Shown here one piece after another: positions 11,323-64,000 of a stretch of 64,000 bases of DNA. This DNA comes from an uncultured Actinomycetes bacterium. GTDB taxonomy: Bacteria; Actinomycetota; UBA4738; HRBIN12. Within the stretch, counting starts at the first letter, position 1. The number at the start of each line of letters is the position of its first letter. Below the pieces are notes generated by a model. The model was not told where the DNA came from, did no database searches, and saw nothing but the letters and a program-made list of their open reading frames with translations. Location of the stretch: NCBI GenBank assembly GCA_963786805.1, contig CAWBAK010000004.1, positions 242,043 to 306,042 on the forward strand, in the 5' to 3' direction. The translations under genes and the position numbers were made by a program.

Positions 11323-11325
11323 GGG

Positions 11326-12150: not shown

Positions 12151-12152
12151 CG

Positions 12153-13046
12153 CTACAGCGCCTCGAAGGCCCCGGCCCTTTTGGCCAGGACCAGGTAGAC
12201 GGCCATGATCGCGAGCGGAACCATCGCGTACGCGGCGGCGAGGGGGATGTTGCCCGCCACCCCGACGTTGTCGAAGATCACGTTCCCGATGAACTGGGTG
12301 TTGCCCACGAGCTCAGGGGCGATGTAGTCGCCCAGGGTCAGCGAGAAGGCGAAGATCGAGCCCGCCACGATGCCCGGCAGGATCAGCGGGAACACGACAC
12401 CGCGGAAGGTCGTCCATCCCCTCGCACCCAGGTCCGACGAAGCCTCCAGCAACGACGACGGCAGGCGCTCGAGCGCGCCGTAGACCGGAAGCAGGGTGAA
12501 CGGCAACCAGAGATACACGAAGGTGAGCCACACGGACCAGTTGGACCTCCCGAGCTGCAGCGAGCCGATGCCGGTCGCCTCCACGAGCCAGTTCAGGAAT
12601 CCGTTCGGCGTCAGGATCAGCTTCCACGCGAACACGCGCACCAGGTAGTTCGCCCACAGCGGGATGATCACCGCGACGAGCAGCGCGTTCCTCATCCGAG
12701 GCGACGCCAGGCGAGCCGCGTAGTACGCGAGCGGGAACGACAGGATGACGTCCGCGAGCATCACGGCCGTGGCGATCCCGATCGTGCGGATCGTGATCGT
12801 TCGATAGACATCGACCTCCGCGAGGGTCTGGAAATTCGTGAGGCTGAACCCGCGGACGATCTCGGCGGTGAAGACGTCGAGATGCCAGAACGCCGAAACG
12901 AACAGGAACACGAGCGAGCCGAGGTAGACGATGAGGAACCAGGCGAGCGGCGCCCCGAGGGAGAGCCCGAGCTTCAGCGCCCGATGTCGGAACAAGAAGG
13001 CGGAGATCCGGCGAGCGGCGCCCGACTGCGTTCCCGCGACACTCAC
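12153..13046 (-). CDS. ABC transporter permease (PotB-like)
   Basis: 297 aa, 6 TM, with ...EASSDLGARGWTTFRGVVFP. Confidence 0.85.
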   Translation of the reverse strand: MSVAGTQSGAARRISAFLFRHRALKLGLSLGAPLAWFLIVYLGSLVFLFVSAFWHLDVFTAEIVRGFSLTNFQTLAEVDVYRTITIRTIGIATAVMLADVILSFPLAYYAARLASPRMRNALLVAVIIPLWANYLVRVFAWKLILTPNGFLNWLVEATGIGSLQLGRSNWSVWLTFVYLWLPFTLLPVYGALERLPSSLLEASSDLGARGWTTFRGVVFPLILPGIVAGSIFAFSLTLGDYIAPELVGNTQFIGNVIFDNVGVAGNIPLAAAYAMVPLAIMAVYLVLAKRAGAFEAL

Positions 13047-18551: not shown

Positions 18552-19836
18552 ATGACGGCCGATACGCTGGCCGGCATGGATCCGGCCAGCGTCGCGGAGG
18601 AGCTCCAGTCGCTCACCGAAGCGCAGGCACGGGGCGCCGAGGACGTCGGCGGCCCTCGTCTCGATCCCAACCGAGATCGCATGCCCGCGTGGATCCCGCG
18701 GCTGCTGCTCCTCGTCGTCCTGACCGCATTCGGCGCCTATGCGGCGTTCTCGGTGGTCCGCCGGTTGCGCGATCTCCTCGTGTGGCTCGTCGCCGCCCTG
18801 TTCCTCTCGTTCGCGCTGGAGCCGGCCGTGAACTGGCTCGTGGCCCGCGGGTGGCGCCGAGGCGCCGCGACGGCAGCGGTGCTGTTCGGGCTGGGACTGC
18901 TCGTGCTGATGATGATCGCCCTCATGGTGCCGCTGGTCATCGACCAGGTGCAGGAGCTCATCAACCGCCTCCCGGAGCTGCTCGCCAACGCGAGCGTCTA
19001 CACGGAGCGCTGGTTCAACGTCGAGCTCACCGGCCAGAAGATCCTCGACCGCATCGCCAACGCGCAGACGGACATCCGCGGGATCGCCGCGAACGTGGCC
19101 TCGATCGGGGCGTTCATCCTCAGCCTCGTGTTCCAGCTCCTCACGATCGGGCTCTTCACGTTCTACTTCGTCGCCGACGGTCCGAGGTTCCGCCGGGCCG
19201 TGTGCTCGATGCTCCCACCGCGCCGCCAACGCGAGATCCTCGCCGCCTGGGACATCGCGATCGACAAGACCGGCGGATACCTCTACTCGCGCCTCCTCCT
19301 CGCGGTGTTCAACGCGGGGATCACCTTCGTCGTGTTGCAGGCGCTCGGTGTGTCCATTCGCGGTTCCGCTCGCGCTGTGGCAGGGCCTGGTCTCACAGTT
19401 CATCCCCGTGGTCGGGACGTACATCGCCGCAGCCGTCCCGCTCCTCGTCGCGCTCCTGGAGGAACCCCTGACGGCAGCGCTCTTCCTCGGCTTCGTCCTC
19501 GTCTATCAGCAGATCGAGAACTACGTCCTCGCCCCTCGGATCACGGCCCGGACGATGCAGCTCCATCCCGCGGTCGCGTTCGGCGCCGCCCTCGCCGGCG
19601 GTTCGATCAGCGGCCTGCTCGGTGCGTTCATGGCCCTGCCGGCGGCGGCGGTCATCCAGGCGACGGTCTCGAGCTACCTGACGCGCCACGAGGTCGTCGA
19701 GTCCGAGCTCACGCGAGACGACGAGCTCCCCACCTACGTCGAGAGCGAGGCCGGCGGCGAGAAGGCCGAAGGCGTCCTGGGCCGGCTCAAGGCCCGGTGG
19801 CGCAGGAGCGACGACGATCGACAGATCGGCGGCTGA
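18552..19836 (+). pseudogene. AI-2E family transporter (PerM/YdiK-like), frameshifted near 19352
   Basis: MTADTLAGMDPAS...LFTFYFVADGPRFRRAV...FNAGITFVVLQALGV is followed by a +1 shift into ...PFAVPLALWQGLVSQFIPVVGTYIAA...QQIENYVLAPRITARTMQLHP. Removing a t in ggtgtgTccattc restores ALGVPFAVPLAL. Confidence 0.75.
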
Positions 19837-22875: not shown

Positions 22876-23554
22876 TCACTCGAGCGCCGACGCAGCCGCA
22901 CGATCGGCGACGACGAGCTGACGTTCCGCTCGGACCCGGCCGGCCGGGATCGAGCGATCCGCGGCAAGGAGCAGCGGCACGACGGCCGCCTTGTCCTCGC
23001 CGGTGACGAGCCACAACACGAACGGCTGCCGGTCGAGCAGCGGGAAGGTGAACGTCATGCGCCGCCGTCCTCGATAGTCGCCGGTCACGGCGACCTCGCG
23101 ATCCACCACGTCCAGCACGGGATCCCCGGGGACGAGCGACGCCGTGTGTCCGTCGTCGCCGAGCCCGAGGTGCACCAGATCGAACCGCTCGGGGAGCGAC
23201 GCCGCGTAGCGGTCGGCCGCCGCTTCCAAGTCGTCGTCGGTGACGGGCATCGGCCGGACCACGCTCCGCGCATCCGGCGGGAGGCTCGCGAGGAGGCCCG
23301 TCAGGTTCCGGTCGGGATGGCCGTCGGGCGCCACCCGCTCGTCGACCTGCCAGATCCCCGTCTGCTTCCACGGCACGTCGCGGGTCGCGAGATCGGCGAA
23401 CATCAGGGACGGACTGCGGCCACCGCTCACCGCCAGTCGCGAACGCGCCGCGCTCCTCGAGCGCCGACCGTGCGGTCTCGGCGACGACCTCCGCCGCGCG
23501 ACGAGCCGCGGCCTCGGCGTCGGGCACCACCTCGAGCTCGTAGGGACCGGCCAT
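22876..23554 (-). pseudogene. pgl: 6-phosphogluconolactonase, frameshifted near 23437
   Basis: The N-terminal frame reads MAGPYELEVVPDAEAAARRAAEVVAETARSALEERGAFA. The downstream frame reads (L)AVSGGRSPSLMF...VHLGLGDDGHTASLVPGDPVL..., the classic 6PGL motif. Removing an a in ttcgcgActggc rejoins them. Confidence 0.75.
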
Positions 23555-24571: not shown

Positions 24572-26540
24572 TCAGCCGCTTGCCGTGCGGACGATCTCAC
24601 CGCTCGCCAGGATGACGCCGTCTTCGCACTCGGCCTGGATCAGGCCGCTGCGGAACTGCTGCTCGTAGAGCCGGGCATACAGCCCGCCGCGCTCGAGCAG
24701 CTCCGCGTGGGTGCCGCGCTCGACGATCCGGCCGCGGTCCACCACGAAGATCACGTCGGCACTCAGGATCGTCGAGAGCCGGTGCGCGATCGCGATCGTC
24801 GTGCGCCCCTTCATCAGCGGCTCGAGCGCCGCCTGCACGAGCCGCTCCGACGTCGTGTCGAGCGAGGAGGTCGCCTCGTCCAGGATCAGGATGCGCGGAT
24901 CCTTGAGCAGGACCCGCGCGATGGCGAGGCGCTGCTTCTCCCCGCCGGAGAGTTTGTAGCCCCGTTCCCCGACGACCGTGTCGTACCCCTCGGGGAGCTC
25001 CGCGATCCGGTCGTGGATGTTGGCCGCGCGGGCGGCCGCCTCGAGCTCCTCTTGCGAGGCGTCCGGCTTCCCGTACAACAGGTTCCGACGGATCGTCGTG
25101 TGGAACAGGTAGGTCTCCTGCGTGACGACGCCGATCGCATCGCCGATCGACTCCAGCGCCATCTTGCGCACGTCGAGCCCGTCGATCTCGATCGCCCCTT
25201 CCTGCACGTCGTACAGGCGTGGGACCAGGTACGTGATCGTCGTCTTGCCGGCCCCGGACGGGCCGACGAGGGCCGCCAGCTGCCCCGGCCGGATCTCGCA
25301 GCGAGACGTTCTCGAGCGTCCATTCGCGCGGCACGACGTCCTGGGCGGCGAGGTCGGGCGGCGAGACCGGCGTCGCGCTCTCCTCCGGCGGCGAGTCGTA
25401 CCGGAACCAGACGTCTCGGAACGCCACGCTGCCGCGGACCTCCGTCGGTGCGACGTGCACGGCGTCGGGGGCGTCCCGGATCTCCTGCGGCAGGTCCAGG
25501 TACTCGAAGATCCGGTCGAAGAGTGCGAGCGAGGAATGCACCTCGGTCGAGACCTGCAGCATCGACCCGATCGGGAAGAACAGCCGGGATTGCAAGGTGG
25601 TGAACGCGACGATGTCGCCCGCGGTGAGCGAGCCTCCTCCGTCGCTCAGGACCCAGCCCGCCACCAGGTACACGAGCGCCGGCGTGATCGAGAAGAACGT
25701 CCCGACGACCGCGAAGAACGAGCGGCCGATCATCGTCTGGCGGATCTGGAGTCCGGTCAGGCGTTGGTTCTCGTCCTGGAACCGGTCCACCTCGTACCGC
25801 TGGCGGCCGAATGCCTTCGACAGCAGGATCCCCGAGACCGAGAGCGTTTCCTCGGTGACCGCCGTCAGGTCCGCGAGCGTCCTCGCGGTGCTGGTCGCGA
25901 CCTCGCGCCTCGCGCGGCCGACCTTCACGGTCAGCCACAGGAAGAACGGCATCAGCGCGAGCGAGAGCGCCGTGAGCTGCCACGACAGGATCGTCATCGC
26001 GATCAACGTGCTCGCGATCACGACGACGCTCGACAGGATGTTGGACGTCGTGTCCGTGACGACGCTCTGCACCCCGCCGACGTCGTTCGCCAGGCGCGAC
26101 TGGATCTCGCCGGTCCGGGTGGTGGTGAAGAACCGGAGCGGCATGGACTGCAGGTGCGAGTAGAGCCGGCTCCGCAGGTCCTGCATCACCCGGAGACCGA
26201 CCAGGTTCGCGAGGTAGGTCTGGCCGATCCCGATGATCCCGGTCACGATCGGGATCGCGACCATCAGCCCGACGTACCGGTACAGGAGGTCCAGGTCCGG
26301 ACACGAGACTCCCCCGCACGTGCCCGGCGGGTTCCCGAACAGCGCGTTGTCGAACACCGCCTTGATGAGCAGCGGGTTCACGACGCCGAGACCGGAGGTG
26401 ATCACGATCGCGAGGCCGACGAGCGCGACCTTCCCGCGGTAGGGACGGAACGTGGCGATCACGCGCCGCACCGTGTGCTTGCCGATGGGGCGATCGTCCT
26501 GCTCGTGGGGGACGCGGAACATCCGGCCGTGGCCTCGCAT
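24572..26540 (-). pseudogene. Fused ABC exporter (MsbA-like TMD plus NBD), frameshifted near 25298
   Basis: The 6-TM exporter domain is followed by ...[15 protein letters not shown]...WTLENVSL and a shift. The next frame carries [40 protein letters not shown]...[16 protein letters not shown]...[12 protein letters not shown]. Removing c in ctgCgagatc restores the frame. Confidence 0.8.
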
Positions 26541-36338: not shown

Positions 36339-36746
36339 TCAGCCCACGCGAACGGCGGCTCGCATCCCGTACGCGTAGTGACCGGGGAGGTGGCAGCCGA
36401 TGATGAGCTCGCCCGCCTCCGTGAACGTGTACGTCGTCGTCGCGGTCTCTCCCGCGGCAACCGTCATCTCACCCGGCCGCGGGGGGTGATAGGCCTCCGT
36501 CCCGCGCTCGTGCGCGAGCTGCACGCCCTCGTCGCCGAGGATGAACTCGTGGTCGATGGGATCCGCGTTCTCGACGACGAACGTCACCGTGGTCCCGGCC
36601 TCGAACTCGAACGCCTCGGGGTGGAAACGCGAGTAATCGACGCGGACCCGGACGGTCTGCTCGCTCGGCTCACCGCCACTCGCGGGAGCGCACGCGGCGA
36701 GGGTGACGGCGAGCAAGCCCACCGCCACCCATCGACGCATCGTCAT
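36339..36746 (-). CDS. Cupredoxin-like copper-binding lipoprotein (plastocyanin/azurin family)
   Basis: 135 aa with a signal peptide plus lipobox (LLAVTLAAC). It carries type-1 copper ligands H...C-x2-H-x4-M (IDHEF...IIGCHLPGHYAYGM). Confidence 0.75.
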   Translation of the reverse strand: MTMRRWVAVGLLAVTLAACAPASGGEPSEQTVRVRVDYSRFHPEAFEFEAGTTVTFVVENADPIDHEFILGDEGVQLAHERGTEAYHPPRPGEMTVAAGETATTTYTFTEAGELIIGCHLPGHYAYGMRAAVRVG

Positions 36747-36748
36747 GA

Positions 36749-37831
36749 TCAGATCGCGGGCCGGTGGAACCGCCGACGCTCGAGCGCGCCGACGAGTCCG
36801 AGCAGCACCAGCATGGCGGCCGCGACCCACAACGCGGTGCCGAACGGCCCGATGCCCGCGTCGCCTCCGCGTGTCGCCCCGGGCATGCCCGCCGCTCGAA
36901 GCGACGGCTGCCCGGCACCGCTCGCGTCGATCGCGAGGTCGTACGTGAGGTCTCCGGCACGGGAGTCCAGACGCAGGTAGGTCAGCCACATGCCGCTCCG
37001 CGGCAGCCAGTTCATGCCCTCGTCGGACCTCAGGTCGGCGAGCAGCGTCGTCGACGCCGGCTGGCTCCGCTCCAGGACGAGCCCCGGCGAGGTTCCCGTG
37101 CCTTCCAGGAACGCCGCGGACGACGGAGCGACGGCGCCGGGCAGGATGGCCGGGACGAGATCGGTCAACAGGTACACATCGGCCTCGATGGGCGCGTCGG
37201 CGGTGGCGCCGAGTCCCAGGATCCGCAGCGGCACCCACGGGTTCGTCGTCGGGATGACGACGTGCACCGGAGTGCCGTCGCCGACGTCGAGCCCCTGCTC
37301 CGCGGCGCGACTCGCGTCGAACCGCACGGCCATGAAGATCGGGCTCCGCTCGGCGTAGAAGTCGAGCACCTCGGGAGCGTCGGGCGGGAGGAAGAAGCCA
37401 TGCTCGCGAGCCCAGTTGCCGACCGCCGTGCCTCCACCTTCGAGGACGACGATGTCGAGCGCGTCGATCTTGGTCTTCAGGATCACGTTCGCGCGATCTG
37501 CGGCAAGGAACGCCGCCCCGGCCTCGAGCGCCGCAGGCTGCGGCTGCGTCTCCTGGACGAGGCGCTGGAGCGTCCACTCGCCGCCTCGGATCACCTTGGA
37601 GGGAACGCCGGGGAGCGGGATGATCGAGCCGAACTCGCCTTTCCCGCCGGCGAACTCGAACGACGTGACGTAGTGCTCGACGCCGCGGTGATAGGCAGCC
37701 ATCGTGGTGGTGCGAACGAGCGTCACCGTCCCGTTCGAGTTGACGAGGCCACCGCACGCGAGCGCGGAGCCGGTGAACAGGAGCAGGGACGCCAGCGTTG
37801 CGGTGAGGACGAGCAGCGTTCGCCGGAGCAT
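36749..37831 (-). CDS. DUF2330 domain-containing secreted/membrane-anchored protein
   Basis: About 360 aa, taken from the C-terminal part of track ORF 36749..38503. It has a signal peptide MLRRTLLVLTATLASLLLFTGSALA, a conserved DUF2330-like body, and a C-terminal TM anchor (LWVAAAMLVLLGLVGAL). Confidence 0.65.
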   Translation of the reverse strand: MLRRTLLVLTATLASLLLFTGSALACGGLVNSNGTVTLVRTTTMAAYHRGVEHYVTSFEFAGGKGEFGSIIPLPGVPSKVIRGGEWTLQRLVQETQPQPAALEAGAAFLAADRANVILKTKIDALDIVVLEGGGTAVGNWAREHGFFLPPDAPEVLDFYAERSPIFMAVRFDASRAAEQGLDVGDGTPVHVVIPTTNPWVPLRILGLGATADAPIEADVYLLTDLVPAILPGAVAPSSAAFLEGTGTSPGLVLERSQPASTTLLADLRSDEGMNWLPRSGMWLTYLRLDSRAGDLTYDLAIDASGAGQPSLRAAGMPGATRGGDAGIGPFGTALWVAAAMLVLLGLVGALERRRFHRPAI

Positions 37832-37907
37832 CCGGGACCTCCCAGCGGTCGGGGGCGAGCGATGGGGCTTGGACGACTCGCCGCTCGGGATGGGTTCCCC
37901 GGAACCG

Positions 37908-40796
37908 CTACGGAGTCGGGCTGGGGCTCGGGCTCCCGGTCGCCTCGTCGCCGCCGAGCAGAGCCTGTGCCTGTTCGATCGCCGCCTGCGCCAGCTCGAT
38001 CTCGGACTGGTACGTCGCGAGGTCGCCTTCCCGGAGCGCCGCGTCCGCGAGGGTGAAGTGCTGGGCAGCCTCCTGCAGGAGCGCCTGCACCTGTTCGTCG
38101 ACGGTACCGGTCGGCGGCGGCTGCGGCTCGCCGTCCGGCGGCGGGACTTCGGCTCGCCGAGGGCGTCCGTCAGAGCCTGCGACAACGTGTCGCCGATCCC
38201 GATCGCGTTCCCGTTGACCACGATGACGCGCCGAAGCTCGGGGATGGCGTTGTCCTGGTTCGACTGGACGTACACGGGCTGCACGTACAGCAGCGCGTCG
38301 TCGACGGGGACGACGAGGAAGTCCCCGAAGCGGATCTGTCGACCCGGACTGCCCCAGCAGGGTGCGCTCGCTGGCGAACTGCGTGTCGGCGTTGATCCGC
38401 GCGAACACCTGGGTCGGACCGTCGACGTTGCGCGCCGGACGGGAACTCGTAGCTGACCATCTGGCCGTAGTCCTCGCCCGGATCGGACTTCGCCGTCAGC
38501 CACGCGACCATGTTCTGCCGGTCAAGCGGCGTGAACGGCAGGATCAGCGAGAAGGTCTCTTCGGTCTCCCCCGGGAGCCGCATGAGCACGTAGTAGGGAC
38601 GCATCGGCGGCAGCTCGTGCGTCCTGCTCCTCCGGGTCAGCCGAGGCTTCGGCCGGATCGCCCGGGAGCGCCCAGAAGTCGGCCCTGCGGTAGAAGACGT
38701 CGGGATCGGTCACGTGATAGCTCGTGAACTGCTCGGCCTGGACCTGGAACAGGTTCTCGGGGTAGCGGAAGTGCGCGAGCAGGTCGGGTGTGGCCTCCGA
38801 CATCGGTGTGAACAGGCTCGGGGAAGGCGTTCCCCCAGACCTGGATGATCGGATCGCTCTCGTCGGAGACGTAGTAGGTCGTCGTGCCCTCGTACGCGTC
38901 GACGACCACCTTCACCGAGTTCCGGATGTAGTTCGCCGACCCGGTCAAGCTCGGGAACGTCGCGTCCTCAGGCTGCGAGGCGACGTCCTGGAGCACCACC
39001 GGCTGTGAGTACGGATAGTCGGTCGTCGTCGTGTAGCCGTCCCAGATCCACACGAGGCGACCGTCCACGATCGCCGCGTACGGATCGGCGTCGAACTGCA
39101 GGAACGGGGCCGCCTTCGGCACCCGCTCCTGGATGTTCCGGAAGATCATGATCCGGCTGTCGCCCTGGACCAGGTTCGAGATCAGCAGGTTGACGTCGCG
39201 GAAGCGCCAGGCGAACAGCGCGCGCTGGACGATGCCGCCGACGGGGATCCCGCCGCCGCCGTCGTAGTTGAACGACACCTGCTCCTGGTCGTCCTGCGGC
39301 GTGCCCTGGTAGTCGAGCTCTCGGGCCCCCGAGTTGACGAGGACGAACGGCACGTCCGAGCTCTCGCCGAAGTACACGCGCTGGCCGTTGCCGAGGAGTT
39401 CCGGCTCGCCGCTCGGCGGGATGTCGCGAAGGGTGAACAGCGGCTGGCCCTCGCTCGTCGCCGTGTTGACCTGCGAGGCCACGGTACCGAACCCGTGCGT
39501 GTACACGAGATGAGTGTTCTGCCACGTGCCCCCGCCGGGGATCTGGTTCTGCGCGATCTCGCGCGCCGAAACCATGACGAGGCGGCGCTCTCCGTCGATC
39601 GTGTACCGGTCCACGTCGATGTCGTGGAACTCGTAGTAGGCGCGGATCCGCTGGAGCGCCCGATAGTTGTCGATCAGGATGTTCGGGCGCCACAGGCGGA
39701 TGTTCTGGATCGTCGTCGCGTTCGCCTCGACGTCCTCGGCCGTCACGACACCGGAGAGCGGCTGCTGGCGCGACTCGATCAGGTCGAGCGCGAAGGCCGC
39801 TCGAGTCGCCTCGATGTTGCGAACGATGAATTCCTGCTCGCGCTGGGCCTCCTGCGGGTTCACGCGGAACCGTTGGACGAACGCCGGATAGGCCGCGCCC
39901 GCCGAGATCGAGACGAGGGCGAGCAGGCCGACCGCGATCACCGGCAACGCCCATCCCCGCATCCGGATGTTGACGAGGAACAAGATCGCGCACGCGATCG
40001 CGATGAACACGAGGATCCGGAGCGCCGGCAGGTGCGCGTTCACGTCGGTGAACGACGCGCCCGCGACCACGCCCCGCGACGACGTCAGCAGGTCGAACTG
40101 CCCGAGGTAGTAGCCCCACGCCTTCGTCAGCATGATGAGGCCCAGCAGGACCGAAAGGTGGGCCTTGACCTGCGGCGTCACCTTCTCGGAGAAGACGATC
40201 GCGTTCGGCCGGATGCCGCCCCACAGGTAGTGGGCGAGGGCGGTGATGAGCAGCACCCCGACGAGCGCCGAGAACAGCCACCCCTGGAGGAACTCGAGCC
40301 ACGGGAGCGAGAAGACGTAGAACGCGGCATCCCGGCCGAACACCGGCTCAGGTCTCCCGAACGTCACGCCGCCGGAGTTCTGCCACAGCAGGAAGGTCCT
40401 CCACTGCGCGGAGACGCCGAGGCCGACGAAGAACGCGATCACGGCGGCGAAGACCGGCAGGAGCCACCAGGCGTACGGCTCGAATTGCATCCGGTAGCGC
40501 TCGACGATCTCCTGCTCGGGGGTCAGCGCACGGTACCGGGGCGTGATCCGCCGCACGATCCACAGGTTCACGTACAGGAGCACGAAGAACGTCACTCCGA
40601 ACAGCAGCCCCAGCACGATCTTGGTCCGGAACACCTTCCAGAAGACCTGCGAGTACCCGACCTCGCGGAACCACAGGACGTCGACGAAGAACCCCGAGAG
40701 CGCCGTGAACGCGACGACGATCCCGGCGAGGATGGCGATGACGATGAAGGCCAACCTGCGGCGACCGGAAGCTGCTGCCGGGATGCGAGTGACCAT
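37908..40796 (-). pseudogene. UPF0182 family membrane protein (homolog of mycobacterial Rv3193c), disrupted by about 5 frameshifts in its C-terminal third
   Basis: The N-terminal 719 aa (ORF 38637..40796) are intact, with 7 TM helices (...VLWFREVGYSQVFW...) plus an extracellular domain. After ...VWGNAFP the reading frame changes at about 38821, 38625, 38433, 38338 and 38147. The conserved segments SLFTPMSEATPDLLAHFRYPENLFQVQ, MRPYYVLMRLPGE...YEFPSG, RNVDGPTQVFARINADTQFASERTLLGQSGS, QIRFGDFLVVPVDDALLYVQPVYVQS...ALTDALGEP and VPPPDGEPQPPPTGTVDEQVQALLQEAAQHF...SPSPTP are recovered in successive frames. Confidence 0.8.
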
Positions 40797-40871
40797 GCCT
40801 CTTATCGGGTCGGGTTGTCGGGTCTGGCCGGCGTCAGGGTATCACCGGGCCTTCGGAACCGAGCCGTTCCG

Positions 40872-41846
40872 TCACTCGTTGCCCTGCAGGTACGCGAGCG
40901 CCTCGGCGAAGGTCTCGACCGGCACCAGCTCGATCTCGGGATCGCCTGCGGAGCGCGCCTCCTCGACGTTGGAGCTCGGGAGCATGAGGACGGTTGCGCC
41001 CGCGCTCTCCGCGGCGATGACCTTGTCCGCGGCACCACCGATCGGGAAGACCGTGCCGTCGATGCCGAGCTGTCCGGTGCTGGCGATCGTCCGCCCACCG
41101 GTCAGATCGCCGGGAGTGAGGAGGTCGTACAGCGCGAGCGCCCACGCGAGTCCGGCGGACGGGCCGCCGATCGCACCGCTTTGGATACGCACGTCGAACG
41201 GGAAGCTCTCGATCATCGAGACGCCGACCAGCGGTCGCTCGCTGCCGCCGCACGGCTCGCGGACCAGGGACACCGTCTCGGGTTCACCGTCCACGGTCAC
41301 GTCGAACGTGAGCCGCGCCCCCGACGCCGTCCCTCGGATCGTACGACGCGCGTCCCCGACGTCGTCCACCTCGGTTCCGTCGATCGCCTGCACGATGTCC
41401 CCGGGAAACAGCTCGCCGTCGGCCGCGCATCCTTCGACCACGCTCTCGATCAGGACGCCGTCGCCGTGTTCCTCCGGGTAGTCCGTCAGCTCGTCCAGCA
41501 CGACGAACGCGGCATCGAGCTTGCTCTGGTCCATCTGCGAGATCGACCGCTCGCGCTCCTGCTCGGGCGTCTCGCCCGGCGCGAAGAGCTCGTCACGAGG
41601 AACCACCGACACGACCGGGTCCAGCCACGCGACGACGATCCCGTACGCGGTGAGCTGGTCGAAGCGAACGGAGGTGAGCACGAAGCTCCCCTCGGACTCG
41701 TAGCGCGGGCGATCGTCGAACCGGATGAGCGGCTGCACGGCTTTCGCGGGTCCCGGGCCGATCGAGTAGTAGGGCAGGTAGATCGTGAACGCCGCGAGCG
41801 CGGCGGCGAGCGGAACGACCAGCCAGACCCGTCGCAGGAAACGCAT
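40872..41846 (-). CDS. YlbL-like secreted PDZ domain plus Lon-protease (S16) C-terminal domain protein
   Basis: 324 aa with an N-terminal signal/anchor, a PDZ region, and a Lon proteolytic-domain motif ...GGPSAGLAWALALYDLLTPGDLTGGRTIASTGQLGIDGTVFPIGG...KVIAAESAGATVLMLP. Its position next to the UPF0182 gene mirrors Rv3194c-Rv3193c. Confidence 0.8.
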   Translation of the reverse strand: MRFLRRVWLVVPLAAALAAFTIYLPYYSIGPGPAKAVQPLIRFDDRPRYESEGSFVLTSVRFDQLTAYGIVVAWLDPVVSVVPRDELFAPGETPEQERERSISQMDQSKLDAAFVVLDELTDYPEEHGDGVLIESVVEGCAADGELFPGDIVQAIDGTEVDDVGDARRTIRGTASGARLTFDVTVDGEPETVSLVREPCGGSERPLVGVSMIESFPFDVRIQSGAIGGPSAGLAWALALYDLLTPGDLTGGRTIASTGQLGIDGTVFPIGGAADKVIAAESAGATVLMLPSSNVEEARSAGDPEIELVPVETFAEALAYLQGNE

Positions 41847-41908
41847 CCACCGATGGTACGTGCTGGTTTCGGGGGAACCGGTCCGGGTAGGCTGCGGTCT
41901 GATCCGCG

Positions 41909-42235
41909 TTGGGTTACTTCATCGTCGTCGTGGTGTCCGTCCTCGTCGGAAGCGGCGTCTACGCGGCCACGCTCCGAGCTGCGCGTGAAGAGACCGTCGC
42001 CGCCGGGTTCGAGGGCCGTTCGACCGAGTCCTCCGGCGCGGCCGACGTCCCCGCTGCCGGCCCCGGCTACACGTACCTGCGCGTCGGGGTCCGCGGGCCG
42101 TCTTGGCAGGACCGGGTCGTGGGGTTCGTCGGCCTCCTGGTTCTGCTCGGCGTGTCGACGGTGACGCTCGCGTTCGGGATCTACCAGCTCGGGCACATCC
42201 TCAACGTGACGATCGAGAACTTCTTCACGAAGTGA
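41909..42235 (+). CDS. Putative small membrane protein (TTG start)
   Basis: 108-aa ORF with two hydrophobic helices (YFIVVVVSVLVGSGVYAA; VVGFVGLLVLLGVSTVTLAFGIY). It has no clear SD and overlaps an antisense Arg-rich ORF. Support is weak. Confidence 0.3.
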   Translation: MGYFIVVVVSVLVGSGVYAATLRAAREETVAAGFEGRSTESSGAADVPAAGPGYTYLRVGVRGPSWQDRVVGFVGLLVLLGVSTVTLAFGIYQLGHILNVTIENFFTK

Positions 42236-42242
42236 CGCGAGG

Positions 42243-43104
42243 TCACGAGACCTCGGGCGTGATGTCGCGGAGCTCTCGGACGAGCATCTCCGACAGCTGG
42301 TCGTCGTCCCGAAGGCGGCCCTCGAGGTTGTACGCGCCCGCGAACTCGCCGAGACCGTTCCGCGTGGGATCGTCGAGGACCCCGGTCGGCGCATCCGAGT
42401 AGATCCCCCGCGCGGCGAGACGGCGCTGGATCTCTTGCACGAGCTCGGGGGTCGCAGGCATGAGCGGGTCGTTTCGAACCAGGACCTCTCGGTCGTAGAC
42501 GGTGAACACTCGAGCCAGCTCCGTGACGGCCTGCGGATGTTCATCGACCCGAACGTCGACGTACCGATCGCTGCGGCCCTCGTACCCTCCGCCCTCGCGG
42601 ACGACCAGCAGCGCGGCAGATTGCCGCCCGCGGCGATCGCCGCCGGCGTCGTCACCGGCGACGAGCGCGGCGAGCAGCCGGTCGACGAGGTCGCCCGTCG
42701 TACCGGTGAACGCATCGCCCATCGCCGCGACCACCTTCTCGCCCACGAGGATGTTCCCCTGGCAGGCGAAGCCCGGCCCGGTCAGCCCGCCGGCCCACTC
42801 GAGGCAGTCCTGCTCCCGTGAACGTGGCCGGCAGACCCTTCCCGTCGACGAAACCCGCCTGGCGGTCGGCCCGGCCCTCGTCGCCGTGGATCAGCTGGGC
42901 GAGGACCTCGGGGGCGGGTGAACCGGACTCCATCAGGTGCAGTCCCTGCGGACCGAAGTCGGTGTTCGCCCACGCCTGTGTCGCGACGGCTCCGACGCCG
43001 GCCCTCGCGTACGGCACCACGGCGCCGACGGCCAGGAACTTCGATGCGACGGCAACACCCCAGTCGCCGGCTTCGGTGTCGGCGGCCACGATCGAGAACG
43101 TCAC
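42243..43104 (-). pseudogene. DUF1028 family protein (Ntn-hydrolase-like), frameshifted near 42816
   Basis: N-terminal frame: (V)TFSIVAADTEAGDWGVAVASKFLAVGAVVPYARAGVGAVATQAWAN...GFVDGKGLPATFT. Downstream frame: EQDCLEWAGGLTGPGFACQGNILVGEKVVAAMGDAFTG.... Removal of one g from cacgGGag joins them. A GTG start overlaps the mreB stop. Confidence 0.7.
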
Positions 43105-44108
43105 CGGCGTCTCACGAGCTGGAACGAGCTTCGGTAGTCGTCGAGGTGCTCGAGCATCGCTCCGGCTCCGATCACGACGGTTTCCAGTGGCCGTTCCGTG
43201 AGATGGACCGGAACCTCGCACTCCTGTGAAAGGAGAAGGTCGAGCCCGCGCAGCAGCCCGCCTCCCCCGGTCAGGAACATCCCCGTCTGGAGCACGTCGT
43301 GGGTGAGCTCGGGTGGCCCCTCGGCGAGCGCTCGTCGGGCGGCCTCCACGATCTTGCCGATCGGGGCGGAGATCGCCTGGCGGATCTCGTCCTCGCTCAG
43401 CCGGATGTCGATGGGAGCGCCGGAGCTGAGCTCGCGGCCCGTGACGACCGCGACCGCTCCGCGCGGGACCGGGAACGCCGAGCCGATGGCGATCTTGATC
43501 TCCTCGGCCGCCTTCTCGCCCACCGCGACGCCGTAGCCGCTCCGAACGTGCTCCTGGATCGCCGCGTCGAGGTCGAACCCTCCCACTCGGATGGACAGGC
43601 CCGAGACGACGCCTCCCATCGAGACGATCGCGAGCTCCGTCGTTCCGCCACCGATGTCGACGATGAGGTTCCCGACCGGTTCGTGGATCGGGAGGCCCGC
43701 TCCGATCGCGGCGGCCAGCGGCTGCTCGACGAGGACGACGCCCTTGCCGCCCGCGAAGCGCACGGCCTCGTCCACCGCTCGGCGCTCGACCTCGGAGCTC
43801 TCGCTGGCGATGCAGGTCAGGACACGGGGCTTGGGGAACCGCGAAACCCCGACGCGCCGCAGCACGAACTCGATCATCCGCTGGGTGATGTCGAACTCGG
43901 TCATCACGCCATGCCGGAGGGGGCGGACGGCGACGACGTTGCCCGAACGGCCTCCGACCATCCGCCAGGCCGCTTCCCCCATCGCCTCGACGTCGCCGGT
44001 CGTGGCGTTCATCGCGACGACGGTCGGCTCGTCGAACACGATGCCCTCGCCCTGACGGTAGACGAGCGTGTTCGCGGTACCGAGATCGATGGCGAGGTCG
44101 CGCGCCAC
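43101..44108 (-). CDS. mreB: Rod shape-determining protein MreB (actin-like ATPase)
   Basis: 335 aa: MARDLAIDLGTANTLVY...DIGGGTTELAIVSMGGVV... shows the actin-fold phosphate 1/2 and adenosine motifs. Confidence 0.9.
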   Translation of the reverse strand: MARDLAIDLGTANTLVYRQGEGIVFDEPTVVAMNATTGDVEAMGEAAWRMVGGRSGNVVAVRPLRHGVMTEFDITQRMIEFVLRRVGVSRFPKPRVLTCIASESSEVERRAVDEAVRFAGGKGVVLVEQPLAAAIGAGLPIHEPVGNLIVDIGGGTTELAIVSMGGVVSGLSIRVGGFDLDAAIQEHVRSGYGVAVGEKAAEEIKIAIGSAFPVPRGAVAVVTGRELSSGAPIDIRLSEDEIRQAISAPIGKIVEAARRALAEGPPELTHDVLQTGMFLTGGGGLLRGLDLLLSQECEVPVHLTERPLETVVIGAGAMLEHLDDYRSSFQLVRRR

Positions 44109-44599: not shown

Positions 44600-44617
44600 C
44601 CTAGCGACCGCCGTAGG

Positions 44618-45827
44618 ATGGGCGGCGTGAGCCAGACCCCCGAGGAGAACCCGTTCGGCGTCCCGATGGGCGACATCTGGAACGACGTGCCCCTGTTCCG
44701 CGAGATCCAGCGGGTCCTGCTCTCCTCGAGCGGTCCCGTGAACTGGGAGCTCGCGCGGCAGGTCGGGATCGCCGCGGCCTCGTGGGGTGCGGGCGACACG
44801 GCGCCGACCGCCGAGGACCAACGGATGTTCGACGAAGCCGTTCGCGTCGCGGAGCTGCAGGTCGGCGCGTTCACCGGCCTCGAACCCCCCGGCGATCTCC
44901 CGAAGGTCCAAGCCGTGCGCCGCGGGCAGTGGGTGCAACAGAACCTCGAGGGTCTCCGCGACGTCCTCGAGCCCGCCGCGGCGAAGATCGGCGAGGCCGT
45001 CGCGCGTGCGCAGCGCGAGGTGCCGCCCGACGCGCCGGATGCTGCGGCGCGCGATGCCCGGCATGACCCAGCTGCTCGGCCAGCTCTCGCCCCTGCTGCT
45101 CGGTGCCCAGGTCGGCAGCGTCCTCGGCGGGCTCGGTCAGCAGGTCCTCGGCCAATACGACATCGCCGTGCCGAGAGCCGAGGGCTCCGCCGCGCTCCTG
45201 TTCGTCGTGCCGAACATCGCGCAGTTCGAGAAGGATTGGAGCCTCGACGCCACCGAGTTCCGTACATGGATCGCGATCCACGAGGTCACCCACCGGTTCG
45301 AGTTCGCGCGCCCGTGGGCGCTCGCACGCTTCCGCGAGCTGCTGAACGACTACACCTCGACGTTGCAGCTGGACGTCGAGGGGTTGCAGCGACGGCTCGA
45401 GATGCTGGACCCGTCCAACCCGGAGGCGATGCAGGAGATGCTCGGATCCGGCGAAGGGCTGTTCGGCGCCGTGCTCGACGACGAGCAGCGCCTGAAGCTG
45501 AACCGGATCCAGGCCTTCATGAGCGCCGCCGAGGGCTACGGCGACCACGTGATGCACACGCTCGGCGCGCAGCTCCTCTCCTCGTACGCGCGGATCGAGG
45601 AAGCGATGCGCCGCTATCGCGAGACCGAGGAGACGGATCCGGTCCTCGAGCGGCTGCTCGGGATCGAGGTCAAGCGGGAGCAGTACCGGCTGGGCAAGGC
45701 GTTCTGCGACACCGTGGTCGAGCTCACGGACGAGGCCACCCTCACGCGGATGTGGGATTCGGCCGACGCCATGCCCTCGCTCCCCGAGATCGAGGAGCCG
45801 CGGCTCTGGCTCGCACGGAGCGCCTGA
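44618..45827 (+). pseudogene. Zinc-dependent metalloprotease (DUF2342/putative F420-associated hydrolase family, HExxH), frameshifted near 45038
   Basis: Frame A: MGGVSQTPEENPFGVPMGDIWNDVPLFREIQRVLLSSSGPVNWELARQVGIAAASWG...AKIGEAVARAQREVPPDAP. Frame B continues MLRRAMPGMTQLLGQLSPLLLGAQVGSVLGGLGQQVLGQYDIAVP...WIAIHEVTHRFEFARPW.... Removal of g in gcgccgGatgctg restores it. Confidence 0.7.
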
Positions 45828-52656: not shown

Positions 52657-53632
52657 TCAGGAGCCGCCCGCGCCCTCGTAGGCCCGTCCAGCCGCTTCCG
52701 GCGGGCGCACCCGCCCGACGAATCCGGCGATCGCCACGATCGTGACGACGTACGGGATCATCCGGATGAACTGGGGTGGCAACGCGGAGATCACCGGCGC
52801 GTTGTTCAGGCGCAAAGGGATCGCAAACGTGAAGCCGAAGAGCCACGCGAAGAACATCAGGCGGACCGGATTCCAGTTCGACAGGATCAGCGCGGCGAGG
52901 GCGATGAAGCCGAGAAAGAGCGTCTGGCCCTCCCGCCAGTTGCCGATCACCTCCGACGCGAGGAAGGCACCGGACATCCCGGCGAACGCCCCGGACAGCA
53001 TGACTCCCTGATACCGGTAGACGGAAACGCTCACGCCGAGCGAACGCGTCGCCTCGGGGTTCTCGCCGCACGACCGGAGACGAAGACCCCAGCGCAGCCT
53101 GTTCAGCGCGAACCACACGGGGACCACCATCAACGCCGCGATGAGCACCACGGGGGATAACCCTTGGAACGCCCGCCCGAGCCCGCTCGGCAGCGACGAC
53201 AGCCCGGGGATGTCCAGGCGGTCCAGGTGCGGTCCGCCGGGGTCGGACTGCGTCGACTGGCCGTCGAAGAACGCGGACGAAAGGAACCGCGCCAAGCCCA
53301 CAGCCACCAGGTTGATCACCACGCCCGACACGATGTGGTCGACCCGGAACGAGATCGTCGCCAGCGCGTGAACGCCCGCGAACAGGGCACCGCAGAACGC
53401 GCCGAACAGCAAGCCGAGCGAGTGGTCCCCAAGGCAGGCCGAGCTCCAACGAGTCGGTGAAGAACCGCGCCCCGAACGCCCCGGTGACCGTTCCGATGAT
53501 CATCAGGCCTTCGAGGCCGATGTTGACGATGCCCGAGCGTTCGCTGAACAGACCGCCGAGGCCGGTCAGATAGAGGATGGTGAAGTAGGTGAACGAGATC
53601 TGGACGGCCACGGCGATGTCGGTGAAGGGCAT
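52657..53632 (-). pseudogene. Nucleoside ABC transporter permease (BMP-system YufQ/NupC-like), frameshifted near 53422
   Basis: N-terminal frame: MPFTDIAVAVQISFTYFTILYLTGLGGLFSERSGIVNIGLEGLMIIGTVTGAFGARFFTDSLELGLPWGP. Downstream frame: SLGLLFGAFCGALFAGVHALATISFRVDHIVSGVVINLVAVG.... Removal of a c (ccaCtcg) rejoins them. Confidence 0.75.
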
Positions 53633-57662: not shown

Positions 57663-58088
57663 ATGACCGAAGGCGACCGCCTGGCCGAGGTTCGGGAGCG
57701 GTTCGAGCGCTCCAGGTTCCACACGTCCTTCCTGGGTGCCCGGCTCGGGCGGGTCCGGCCGGGGGAAGTGGACGTGGAGCTGGAGGTCGGTTCCGAGCAC
57801 CTGAACCTGTTCGGGACGATGCACGGCGGGATGATCGCCACCCTCGCCGACACCGCCACGGGTCTGGCGATGCTCACAACGCTTCAACCCGGGACGACGC
57901 ACCTGACGGCCTCGCTCGGCGTGACGTTCCTCGCGCCCGGGCGAGCCGGGGTCGTCACCGCGCGAGGGCGGGTGCTGAAGGCCGGACGGCGCTTCGGGTA
58001 CGCCGAGGCCGATGTGGTGAACGAGGCGGGGGACCTCCTCGCCCGGGCCACGGCGACCTTCACGATCCTGCCCGAGCGCGATCAGTAG
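57663..58088 (+). CDS. PaaI/YbgC-type hotdog-fold thioesterase
   Basis: 141 aa: ...NLFGTMHGGMIATLADTATGLAM.... Confidence 0.8.
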   Translation: MTEGDRLAEVRERFERSRFHTSFLGARLGRVRPGEVDVELEVGSEHLNLFGTMHGGMIATLADTATGLAMLTTLQPGTTHLTASLGVTFLAPGRAGVVTARGRVLKAGRRFGYAEADVVNEAGDLLARATATFTILPERDQ

Positions 58089-58465
58089 TCGACGTCCATG
58101 TCCTGCATCACGCGGGCGAACTCCGTGAGCGCGCCCTGCAGCTGCATCAGGAGCGTCATCGAGCCGTTGATCCTGATCTTCCCCGTCATGAACGCGCTCA
58201 CCGGGTTCAGCTCACTCCGGGCGAGGGCGGCCGCCGTCTCGTAGTCCTGCTCGATCGTGGCATCGGCCTTGTCGGCATCGCCGGATCCGAGCTCGACCTT
58301 CCCGCCCGAGAAGCGGAGCCAGTACCGCTTCTGCCCCTCCGGCGTGGCGATCACGTTCTGGATCGTCGCGTTCGCGTTCTCCGAGGCCTTGGCGAAGGCC
58401 TCGGACGCGTTCAGGCGCTGCTCGAGCTCGGTGGTCCACTCGTCGGAGAGGAACTGAACGGGCAC
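58082..58465 (-). CDS. SCP2 sterol-binding domain protein
   Basis: 127 aa: ...GKVELGSGDADKADATIEQDYETAAALARSELNPVSAFMTGKIRINGSMTLLMQL, the typical SCP2 C-terminus. Confidence 0.75.
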   Translation of the reverse strand: MPVQFLSDEWTTELEQRLNASEAFAKASENANATIQNVIATPEGQKRYWLRFSGGKVELGSGDADKADATIEQDYETAAALARSELNPVSAFMTGKIRINGSMTLLMQLQGALTEFARVMQDMDVDY

Positions 58466-58534
58466 GTCGGCCTCCAGTGTCGGCGGTTGGTTCCCGGAGT
58501 CTAGAGCCCGCCACCCGCCACCGAACGGTTCGCC

Positions 58535-59183
58535 TCAAGCGTCCTCGAACAGTTGCGGCTCGGTGAGATGGCGGACGTCGTTCAGGAACCGGACCTCGCG
58601 CCGGTCGCCGTCGACCCCGATCACGCTGATCGACGTGTTCTCCGGAAGGAAGAACATCTCCTGCTCGAGTCGGAGCAGTGGCGCCACGTAGGCGTTCACG
58701 ACCCCGCCGTGACAGAACACGTACACGTTTCCCCGCGGATGCTCGGAGAGGGCGCGCTCCACACCGGCCAAGACGCGCGCCCGGAAGGCCTCCAGGTCCT
58801 CGGATCCCAGGAGCGTGCCGCCAGAAGGCTTCGTGATTGCGGAAGCTGTGGAGCAAGGCCTCATCGCCCCCGAGGATCTCTTCGAAGGTCCGGTTCTCCC
58901 AGTCGCCGATGAACGCCTCGGTCAGGTCCATGTCGTATCCGACACCGATGCCCGCCTTGTCCGCGTACGCGAGGGCGGTCTCGCGGGCGCGTCGAAGCGG
59001 CGAGCTCACGATCGCGGCCGGCGGGTCCATCTGGAGCAGCCGCCGCGCGAGGCGTTCGGCCTGGTCCCGTCCCTCCGCCGCGAGCGGCGGATCGTACTGA
59101 TCGCCGCGCGGCGTCGAGGCGAAATCGTCGTTGTCCAGGTCCGAGCGTCCGTGCCGGATCAGGTACAGGACCCGAGCCGTCAT
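58535..59183 (-). pseudogene. Histidine phosphatase family protein (phosphoglycerate-mutase-like), frameshifted near 58807
   Basis: N-terminal frame: MTARVLYLIRHGRSD...PPLAAEGRDQAERLARRL...SSPLRRARETA... (the RHG catalytic motif). Downstream frame: (G)SEDLEAFRARVLAGVERAL...VYVFCHGGVVNAYVA.... Removal of one g from ctggGatcc joins them. Confidence 0.7.
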
Positions 59184-59452
59184 CGCCGGCGGCCCCGCGT
59201 GCGGTTGAGCTCGACGCGCCAGCACCCCTCGTGCCAGTGGCGTCGCTCGTCGGGTGCGTCCTGCGGCACGACGACGAGGTGCCAGGTGCCCGGCCGGATC
59301 TCCAGGTCGCATCCGGGGCACCGGTACGGTTTGTCGCCGGTGAGCCGCCGCACGTCGAACCCCGGCGCGAGCGCCCACGTCGGCGCCGCCGACTGCGGCA
59401 TCCCCGACTGCGGGGGCGGGTCCTCGGGCGCTCGCCGGTTCTTCCTCGGCAT
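59180..59452 (-). CDS. Small hypothetical zinc-ribbon-like protein (90 aa)
   Basis: MPRKNRRAPEDPPPQSGMPQSAAPTWALAPGFDVRRLTGDKPYRCPGCDLEIRPGTWHLVVVPQDAPDERRHWHEGCWRVELNRTRGRRR carries a CPGC...HWHEGC motif. The ATG overlaps the stop of the upstream hydrolase (TGATG) and its own stop overlaps the phosphatase ATG (ATGA), suggesting translational coupling. Confidence 0.45.
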   Translation of the reverse strand: MPRKNRRAPEDPPPQSGMPQSAAPTWALAPGFDVRRLTGDKPYRCPGCDLEIRPGTWHLVVVPQDAPDERRHWHEGCWRVELNRTRGRRR

Positions 59453-60142
59453 CAGCGCGCCTTCTTCTTCGCGGCGGCGGCGACCCGCAGGACGAACGGG
59501 GCGGCGCGTTCGGCGAGCGCCATGCCGATCTCGCGATCGTCCGCCTTGGCGCCGCCCACCTTGAAGGAGTGGCCACCGCCGTCCACGGGCTCGAGCGTGG
59601 CGCGGTCGCCGAGCTTTCGCACGACCTTCGCCAGCAGCGCCGGTGTCGCGAAGGGATCCTTCGTCCCCTGCACGAAGAGCATCGGCACCGTGATCCGGTA
59701 CAGGTGTTCGTCGCGGATCCGTTCCGGCTTGCCCGGGGGATGCAGCGGATAGCCGAGGAACACGAGCCCGTCGGCCGGCATGCCGTCGGCGACGCACATC
59801 GAGGCGATGCGCCCGCCGAGTGACTTCCCGCCGGCCAGCACCGCGCGGCCCCCCGCCTTCGACGTCGCCGCCGCGAAGACGGCGAGCCACGCATCGCCGA
59901 AGGACGCGCTCGGGGTCGGGCGCACGCTTCCCCCGCTCCACGTAGGGGAAGTTGAACCGGAGGGTCGAGACCCCGGCGTCCGCGATCGCACGGCCGAACC
60001 CTGCCATGAACGGATGGTCCATCCCCGCGCCGGCCCCGTGGGCCAGGACCAGGGTCGCGACCGACCCCTTCGGCGCGATCCACGCGGTGCTCACGTTCGT
60101 GCCGCCGACGTCGACCGTGCCCCGTACCTCCGGCGATGCCAT
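59452..60142 (-). pseudogene. Alpha/beta hydrolase (COG3571-like predicted hydrolase), frameshifted near 59914
   Basis: N-terminal frame: MASPEVRGTVDVGGTNVSTAWIAPKGSVATLVLAHGAGAGMDHPFMAGFGRAIADAGVSTLRFNFPYVERGKRAPDP. Downstream frame: SASFGDAWLAVFAAATSKAGGRAVLAGGKSLGGRIASMCVADG... (the GxSxG nucleophile elbow) ...PMLFVQGTKDPFATP...GGGHSF. Removal of a c from the gaCCCCgag run restores it. Confidence 0.65.
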
Positions 60143-60159
60143 GCCTAGAATCCTCGCAG

Positions 60160-60877
60160 ATGGCCGGAACCCTCTATCTGGGAACGTCGGGCTTCGCCTA
60201 CGACGAGTGGAAGCACGGCGTCTTCTACCCCGAGGGGCTGAAGAACCGCGAGATGCTCTCGTACTACGCGAGCCGGTTCCCCTCGGTCGAGATCAACTAC
60301 ACGTTCCGGCGCTTCCCGACCGAGAAGTCCATGGAAACGTGGAAGAGCCGAGACGCCGGAGGGGTTCCGGTTCACGCTCAAGGCGAACCAACGCATCACG
60401 CACTTCAAGACGGCTGCGCCGACGTGGACGAGGACGTCCGGGACTTCCTGGATCGCGCGAGGCTGCTCGGCGACCGGCTCGGGACGATCCTGTACCAGTG
60501 TCCTCCCACGCTGCAGTACGACCGGGCGCTGATCGAGGCGTTCGTCGGGTACCTGCCTCCGCAGCCGACGGCGGCGATGGAGTTCCGGCACCCCTCGTGG
60601 ATCGAGGCGAAGGAGCTGCTGTCCGAGCAGGGCATCGCCTGGTGCGTCGCCGAGACCGACGAGAAGGATCCCGGGCCCGAACGACCTGTCGTGGGAGCCG
60701 TTCGGGTTCCTCCGTCTGCGCAAGACGGAGTACGACGACGACGAGCTGTCCGCCTGGGCCGAACGCATCCGTCCCGTCCTCGACTCCGGCAACGACGTCT
60801 ACTGCTACTTCAAGCACGAGGACGAGGGCCACAGCACGAAGATGGCCGACCGCCTGCGCGCGACGCTCGCCGGCTAG
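60160..60877 (+). pseudogene. DUF72 family protein, with four single-base insertions (three within about 70 nt)
   Basis: Frame 1: MAGTLYLGTSGFAYDEWKHGVFYPEGLKNREMLSYYASRFPSVEINYTFRRFPTEKSMETWKSR. Then TPEGFRFTLKANQRITHFK in frame +1, about 5 codons in frame +2, then back to DVDEDVRDFLDRARLLGDRLGTILYQCPPTLQYDRALIEAFVGYLPP...EFRHPSWIEAKELLSEQGIAWCVAETDEKD. A fourth shift at about 60671 leads to ...PGPNDLSWEPFGFLRLRKTEYDDDELSAWAERIRPVLDSGNDVYCYFKHEDEGHSTKMADRLRATLAG*. Confidence 0.7.
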
Positions 60878-63361: not shown

Positions 63362-63365
63362 CGCC

Positions 63366-63734
<369 letters not shown>

Positions 63735-63744
63735 CTAGCTTATG

Positions 63745-64000
63745 TCAGCGCGAAGCGTCTTCCCGCAGAAGCTTCTCGAAGAGGTGGAAGCTCCGGCGCT
63801 CGCGCATCCCCACCCTCTCGTAGAGCCGCGTCGCACCCGTCGGGTTCTCCGAGTCGACGTTCAACAGGACCGATCCCACCCCGAGCTCGGCGAACCCCTC
63901 GAAGCTGCGGAGCAGCAGGGCCTTCGCGATACCCCTGCCTCGCCAGGCGCGACGGACGGCGACGACGTCGATCCAGCCGGCACCCTCGACGAGGCGGCCG
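63745..64000 (-). CDS. GNAT family acetyltransferase, C-terminal part (gene continues beyond the window edge)
   Basis: Minus-strand translation: ...GWIDVVAVRRAWRGRGIAKALLLRSFEGFAELGVGSVLLNVDSENPTGATRLYERVGMRERRSFHLFEKLLREDASR*. Confidence 0.6.
   Translation of the reverse strand, partial: GRLVEGAGWIDVVAVRRAWRGRGIAKALLLRSFEGFAELGVGSVLLNVDSENPTGATRLYERVGMRERRSFHLFEKLLREDASR

Follow-up and report, generated by a model that had tools for sequence, protein, structure and literature searches.

The UPF0182 family membrane protein gene at 37908..40796 (minus strand) of the window, by which we mean the whole 64-kb stretch of DNA that was analysed, is interrupted by five frame breaks. These breaks are very probably consensus errors of a long-read-only metagenome assembly, most likely a Nanopore assembly of the Flye/Medaka type, and in the organism the gene most likely encodes one intact membrane protein of 960 aa. 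The insertions that cause the breaks are private to this assembly, and without them the ORF is perfect, orthologous, and under purifying selection; the same insertion signature is found throughout the window and tracks assembly technology in related loci. We regard the breaks as an assembly artefact and not a real feature of the organism, and the broken-gene reading is unsupported. The initial annotation had left the choice between assembly error and real lesion open; the evidence given below favors the former, in the form of an insertion-only process that has affected at least 12 genes.

The UPF0182 locus

As assembled, the gene covers 2889 nt, including the stop codon and six spurious bases. 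The ORF listing shows a 719-aa ORF (38637..40796, minus strand) beyond which overlapping ORFs occupy the two remaining frames, and the translations of these frame pieces are consecutive parts of one protein. The 719-aa ORF was at first taken to be intact. This is correct for codons 1 to 659 (38818..40796, minus strand), which the ORF list, Pfam, and a GC3-based frame HMM, written for this analysis and independent of the alignments, all place in the true frame, and which include six strongly hydrophobic N-terminal segments and the beginning of a large soluble domain. It is not correct for the last 60 codons and stop (38637..38816, minus strand), which are out-of-frame read-through and not real protein: the Pfam match stops at residue 662, and the HMM switches frame at 38816/7. 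The gene as assembled thus specifies just 659 correct residues. The 770-position profile PF03699 is matched in pieces over the three frames as written, with positions 3-632 in the long ORF, 636-687 in the ORF at 38522..38803, and 689-745 in the ORF at 38170..38604. The exact 719-aa product (P0001) is present in NCBI/ENA on a 734,269-bp contig, and the breaks are therefore part of the deposited assembly. A contig of this length, 734 kb, is typical of long-read MAGs.

The genes on either side are intact, as had been noted at the outset. The PDZ-Lon (YlbL/Rv3194c-like) protease gene (40872..41846, minus strand) encodes 324 aa with Pfam Lon_C and PDZ domains, is of equal length in relatives, and has a product that was found identical on two independent Logan contigs. 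The DUF2330 gene (36749..37831, minus strand) encodes 360 aa, compared with 359-362 aa in relatives, and the cupredoxin-like gene (36339..36746, minus strand) encodes 135 aa, the same as in relatives. The order PDZ-Lon, UPF0182, DUF2330, cupredoxin is common to all close relatives, and the synteny first proposed, with PDZ-Lon upstream and DUF2330 and cupredoxin downstream, is likewise borne out. PDZ-Lon lies directly upstream of the UPF0182 gene in the window and in L001, L056, L058, L059, and L070, which is the arrangement of Rv3194c-Rv3193c; the comparison here was made with these relatives and not with M. tuberculosis itself. The UPF0182 locus thus appears to be orthologous with the Rv3193c-type locus.

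Five private insertions

Break positions were taken from a DNA alignment to six relatives (L001, L056, L057, L058, L059, and L060). Within the coding sequence, the frame-disrupting differences between the window and all six relatives number exactly five, and every one is an insertion in the window. In the order of the minus-strand gene, the first is a G at 38817, in CCCCGA[G]CCTG (gene sense), which is missing from L001, L056, L057, L058, and L060. The second is one extra base in GACGC[A]CGAGCTG at 38615..38618, where adjacent substitutions make the placement ambiguous. The third is a G at 38433, in CCGGC[G]CGCAACG, and the fourth is an A at 38339, in GGGTCG[A]CAGATCCG; at both sites L058 and L060 have the same context minus the extra base. 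The fifth is the dinucleotide AA at 38148..38149, in GAGCCG[AA]GTCCC, identified by alignment to the relatives. At sites 3, 4, and 5, some relatives have flanks identical to those of the window and differ only in the extra base or bases.

Along the gene the reading frame runs 0, +1, +2, 0, +1, 0. The five insertions total +6, so that the last segment is back in the original frame; one break, which the initial annotation had described as being of opposite sign, is in fact the 2-base AA insertion at 38148-38149, and all five are insertions. The first break truncates the product at a stop codon at 38637-38639. The switch points of the frame HMM (38816/7, 38618/9, 38430/1, 38337/8, and 38146/7) lie no more than 3 nt from the alignment positions. 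HMM and alignment are in accord on five frame breaks in the last third of the gene, between 38148 and 38817, as first described.

Several local causes were considered for these sites and set aside. Homopolymer slippage is ruled out, since runs of five or more identical bases in 38100..38850 occur only at 38568 and 38832, neither of which is an insertion site. A search of the five sites for a shared motif, whether a methylation or a slippery sequence, revealed none. A collapsed repeat or a GC-skew anomaly had been suggested as something to look for; the interval 37500..41000 contains no direct, inverted, or tandem repeat of note, and neither GC content nor skew is anomalous there. An insertion hot spot was also rejected: a related protein (P0080) ends early, some 10 codons before the position of the first break in the window, on a contig (L070) that belongs to another long-contig MAG full of frameshifts, and the other Nanopore loci break elsewhere.

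The corrected gene

Deleting the six bases yields an ORF of 2883 nt that encodes 960 aa with no internal stop, a length that agrees to the nucleotide with the genes of L001, L056, and L057. The corrected protein matches PF03699 with 929.5 bits over positions 3-770 of 770, compared with 3-632 for the long ORF as written, and the proposed UPF0182 (Rv3193c-type) identity holds over the full length of the profile. All six independent relatives, at 81-95% nucleotide identity, have a single open frame of 942-968 aa with all of the insertions absent; L001, L056, and L057 are 93-95% identical in nucleotide sequence, L058 is 90% identical (91% in amino acids), and L059 and L060 are about 81% identical (86% in amino acids). 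The closest intact orthologues (P0002-P0007), which come from independent metagenome assemblies, are 942-960 aa long with 97% amino acid identity, and the nearest GTDB species representative has 83% identity at the protein level. The reconstruction of the C-terminal third through alternate frames, offered in the initial annotation and checked here by alignment to orthologues, proves to be right because the orthologues contain every segment that was recovered.

Selection was compared between the two parts of the gene by the Nei-Gojobori method with the three closest relatives. In the shifted part the dN/dS ratio comes to 0.065-0.070, as against 0.087-0.088 in the intact part; it is no higher past the first break than before it, which indicates that selection has not been relaxed there. 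A search of the corrected gene for nonsense substitutions found none. Judging from these features, a real pseudogene old enough to have collected five indels would not be expected to look like the corrected gene. The 3' third shows more synonymous divergence from the closest relatives (dS of 0.26-0.28) than do the first two thirds (0.15-0.165).

A Kyte-Doolittle scan of the corrected protein locates six strong hydrophobic segments, all of them within residues 15-301, with the remainder soluble. The full match to PF03699 places the protein in the UPF0182 family, as known from Rv3193c of M. tuberculosis and MSMEG1959 of M. smegmatis, and its hydrophobic N-terminal segments and large soluble remainder may reflect the layout of that family. 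Family members are described as having about seven transmembrane helices at the N terminus, with a large extracytoplasmic domain after them (bioRxiv 10.1101/2025.11.14.688347), and Rv3193c is given as an orthologue of a UPF0182 protein (PMC6479280).

Insertions elsewhere in the window

Applied to the full 64 kb, the frame HMM reports 16 same-strand frame switches without a stop codon, 11 of them outside the UPF0182 gene. The net shift is +1 in 15 of the 16 and +2 in the remaining one. For most of the eleven switches outside UPF0182, the two pieces continue a single Pfam profile, and at least 11 genes in addition to UPF0182 are split. Adding six further insertions found by alignment in GlnD and DUF72 to the 16 HMM events gives a window total of at least 22 frame-breaking insertions in 12 genes, with no unambiguous frame-breaking deletion.

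Some of these breaks could be placed by alignment. The DUF1028 gene (42243..43112, minus strand) has a private +1 insertion at 42812..42814 that divides it into two frames (Pfam positions 1-95 and 97-193) and that is absent from L001, L056, and L058. Four private +1 insertions are found in GlnD (60875..63383, minus strand), at 62119, 62213, 62251, and 62428, by alignment to L061, L062, and L063; without them GlnD is one long ORF with an HD motif. Four more, at 60346, 60409, 60417, and 60680, are found by alignment in the DUF72 gene (60160..60874, plus strand; Pfam 1-142 and 154-216). When the GlnD and DUF72 insertions are deleted, full ORFs with canonical motifs result. Single private +1 insertions were aligned in an Abhydrolase_11 gene at 59896 (minus strand; Pfam 3-56 and 74-173) and in a histidine phosphatase gene at 58809 (minus strand; His_Phos_1 1-108 and 116-193). 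The Zincin_2 gene (44615..45813, plus strand) has a break of net +1 mod 3 at 45032..45051 (Pfam 1-91 and 95-344), in an indel-rich stretch where single events are not separable.

The other net +1 switches come from the HMM and Pfam. They are found in a glycogen-debranching-type gene at 1653..1654 (minus strand; GDE_N_bis 1-71 and 76-189), an AI-2E transporter gene at 19357..19358 (plus strand; Pfam 4-218 and 221-326), an ABC transporter gene at 25298..25299 (minus strand), where the switch falls between the ABC_membrane and ABC_tran halves, and a BPD_transp_2 permease gene at 53434..53435 (minus strand; Pfam 5-45 and 57-268). In a 6-phosphogluconolactonase-type gene the switch, at 23407..23408 (minus strand), is near the 5' end and is called by the HMM only, with Pfam matching just the downstream piece.

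A metagenome scan with the GlnD N terminus recovered three close relatives at 91-95% nucleotide identity, and a comparison of 57983..64000 with these three GlnD-region relatives gave twelve private +1 insertions, one deletion, and one +3 event. The UPF0182 gene had been singled out as the densest concentration of frame breaks in the window. It does have the most events, but GlnD, with four in 310 bp, and DUF72, with four in 335 bp, are both denser. The UPF0182 clustering is tighter than a uniform distribution would give, with P ~2e-4 for 5 of the 16 HMM events falling within 670 bp, or 1e-3 when 22 events are counted. All of the insertions fall outside long homopolymers, and in 9 of the 16 unambiguous ones the two flanking bases are identical and differ from the inserted base (P = 0.004). 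This non-homopolymer placement and the tight clustering bear on the error process and not on the biology.

Dependence on sequencing technology

A scan of GTDB species representatives yielded 54 loci with UPF0182 genes, to which six further loci were added for a total of 60. Fourteen of these are from Nanopore-only Microflora Danica (MFD) MAGs of related Actinomycetota, and the other 46 are mostly on contigs with MEGAHIT- or SPAdes-type names. The MFD MAGs were assembled with Flye and given a single round of Medaka (PMC12313526), and Nanopore MAGs with less than about 40x coverage are known to keep indels that lead to frameshifted gene calls (PMC9262707). Frame breaks split the UPF0182 gene at 3 of the 14 Nanopore loci, against none of the other 46 (Fisher p ~0.011, computed by hand), with one break in L016, two in L039, and four in L053. 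Event rates per kb from the HMM are 0.21 for the Nanopore loci, 0.25 for the window, and 0.022 for the 46 other loci, where the events are mostly false positives at a low-complexity tail. In the Nanopore loci 48 of 63 events are in the +1 direction, compared with 2 of 13 in the other loci, and 40% of the gaps between Nanopore-loci events are shorter than 700 bp, where a Poisson distribution would give 14%. The window and the Nanopore loci are alike in rate, sign, and burstiness, and the window therefore fits an error profile that is tied to the technology and is seen again in unrelated species.

The window also resembles the frameshifted gene calls of Nanopore-only MAGs in that split ORFs continue the same family, contiguity is high, and the breaks are absent from short-read assemblies of relatives. 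It differs from the emphasis of the Nanopore indel literature, which stresses homopolymer indels, whereas nearly all of the changes here are insertions outside long homopolymers, often between two identical bases.

A direct short-read comparison is available just upstream of the UPF0182 gene. The Logan short-read contig L069 (ERR11592904), which carries the exact PDZ-Lon protein of the window, is 99.46% identical to 40539..43505; on it the DUF1028 gene is intact at 286 aa, and the inserted base at 42813 of the window is absent. Run ERR11571147 likewise includes a contig at 99.5% identity. For the UPF0182 3' third, no short-read contig of >99% identity was found, the closest relatives there being 93-95% identical. 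With the corrected C-terminal 319 aa as a protein query, no match exceeded 92% identity, although this search was non-exhaustive and also missed the known full-length relatives at 97%.

The source assembly is probably long-read-only and of modest coverage. The error process operates across the whole window, at roughly one frame-breaking insertion per 3 kb, and inserts bases without deleting them. Its errors fall in local bursts, of which the UPF0182 3' third is one, and such bursts probably mark places where the consensus was set by mixed strains or by reads that were few or poor.

Alternative explanations

The mixing of strains deserves separate mention. If co-assembled strains differ most in the 3' third of the gene, mixing of their haplotypes by the assembler or polisher could account for the extra bases. 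Such mixing would be one form of artefact, differing in what caused the clustering, and as a source of the local burst it is plausible: dS is raised in this third, substitutions flank insertion 2, and public metagenomes contain several closely related populations at 94-99.5% identity. Haplotype mixing leaves unexplained why the errors are almost exclusively insertions and why they are spread through the window, and on sequence alone it looks the same as low coverage; we consider it somewhat unlikely, while giving it more weight than any of the readings that follow.

The UPF0182 gene could instead be a genuine pseudogene, in a lineage or strain that truly gained five insertions during a genome decay that also struck about a dozen genes of the window. 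The breaks are indeed in the deposited sequence, where the first truncates the product at 38637-38639, and many further genes of the window are broken. No same-strain short-read sequence was found for the 3' segment, and since the closest relatives of this segment are just 93-95% identical, there is a small chance that a real lesion arose very recently in this strain alone. Against decay, the shifted part has a dN/dS as low as that of the intact part (~0.07) with no nonsense mutation, and decay would bring deletions, stops, and missense changes where we find 22 insertions and no clear deletion. Every event is private to one assembly, one of the window insertions is missing from the 99.5%-identical short-read contig, and the signature, which unrelated Nanopore MAGs share, is lacking where related organisms were assembled from short reads. 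Decay would also mean that conserved genes, glnD among them, are dead, and UPF0182 proteins have been described as universally conserved in Actinobacteria (bioRxiv 10.1101/2025.11.14.688347). These points together make a genuine pseudogene very improbable.

Decayed genes of the Mycobacterium leprae type offer a useful comparison. They are the pseudogenes of reductive genome evolution, and the window is like them in having many broken genes in one region with intact neighbors. It is unlike them in showing no nonsense substitutions, no relaxed dN/dS, and no clear deletions, and in having changes that are private to one assembly.

Real insertions could also have arisen in an uncultured Actinomycetota population with a mutation process that is +1-only, non-homopolymer, and bursty, and that knocked out UPF0182, GlnD, and some ten more genes of this 64-kb stretch so recently that substitutions would not yet show relaxed selection; we hold this to be less probable still than ordinary decay. 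Programmed ribosomal frameshifting or transcriptional slippage that would bypass the breaks and give a full-length protein from the sequence as written fits the fact that six bases are a multiple of three and leave the last segment in frame 0, but it has next to no likelihood, as neither a slippery run nor a homopolymer or shared motif occurs at the five sites, reading in the first shifted frame terminates ahead of the second site, the inserted bases occur in no relative, and like breaks are found in a dozen unrelated genes.

Implications

With consensus error as the preferred reading, the main consequence is a practical warning for this contig and for similar long-read-only MAGs. Further frame-break findings from the window should be weighed in the same way, and the insertion-only, non-homopolymer, bursty signature may be of interest to those who polish high-GC Nanopore MAGs. 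The finding carries little biological weight, the gene being a conserved UPF0182 gene of the ordinary kind, from a family for which a preprint proposes a role in FtsH regulation (bioRxiv 10.1101/2025.11.14.688347). About one third of the genes here are split by spurious insertions, and so the 719-aa product, the apparent pseudogenes, and any "missing" functions should not be read as the biology of this organism.

Frame breaks in the window

All of the detected frame breaks are insertions; among the same-strand frame switches called by the GC3-based hidden Markov model over the whole window, 15 of 16 have a net size of +1 and the remaining one of +2. A foreign base was flanked by two identical bases in 9 of 16 insertions (binomial P = 0.004), a count that took in only the unambiguously placed insertions of the window, with changes such as CC to CGC, GG to GAAG, and TTT to TCTT. 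Such a pattern may have been left by the basecaller or the polisher in high-GC DNA.

Two neighboring genes are each interrupted by four private +1 insertions, i.e., extra bases absent from the aligned relatives. In DUF72 (60160..60874, plus strand) they lie at 60346, 60409, 60417, and 60680, spanning 335 bp, and in GlnD (60875..63383, minus strand) at 62119, 62213, 62251, and 62428, spanning 310 bp. Some of these insertions are overlooked by ORF inspection because the out-of-frame stretches they leave are short and free of stops; full ORFs were regained for both genes once the inserted bases were deleted. The Zincin_2 break (45032..45051) lies in a stretch rich in indels, with −1, −1, and −3 in the window relative to the close relative L056 and +14 relative to the more distant L059, and the break is thus not reducible to one event.

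A short-read contig from a public run (L069; Logan ERR11592904_7914) is 99.46% identical to window positions 40539..43505 but does not have the bases that are extra in the window at 42813, within DUF1028, and at 41896, in an intergenic region. The contig carries one additional C at window position 43310, in the 3′ part of MreB, that is absent from the other relatives.

Divergence within the UPF0182 gene

Compared with the three closest relatives, the 3′ third of the UPF0182 gene (37908..38817) has a dS of 0.26 to 0.28 and the remainder (38818..40796) one of 0.15 to 0.165, with similar dN/dS in the two parts. Recombination or strain mixing could account for the raised dS, or this segment could simply evolve faster by nature. 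The coding sequence also contains a perfect 17-nt inverted repeat, GGATCGTCGTCGCGTTC / GAACGCGACGACGATCC, at 39707..39723 and 40707..40723 (spacing, 983 nt), probably a chance product of biased coding sequence.

Split genes and relatives in public collections

In L070, a long-contig MAG with 70% amino acid identity (GCA_942491705.1, CALOBP010000006.1), UPF0182 is in two pieces of 729 and 252 aa (10001..12921), broken about 10 codons upstream of the first break in the window's gene; its DUF2330 is broken into 117 and 244 aa and its nucleotidase into four pieces. UPF0182 is also split, but at positions other than these, in three Nanopore Microflora Danica MAGs (L053, L039, and L016).

A scan of genome contigs with the UPF0182 protein did not find the window's source genome among the GTDB species representatives. 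Although identity in this protein reaches only 83% for the nearest representative, several metagenomes hold contigs that are 97 to 99.5% identical, and the source MAG may have been excluded by quality filters, possibly owing to its many broken genes.
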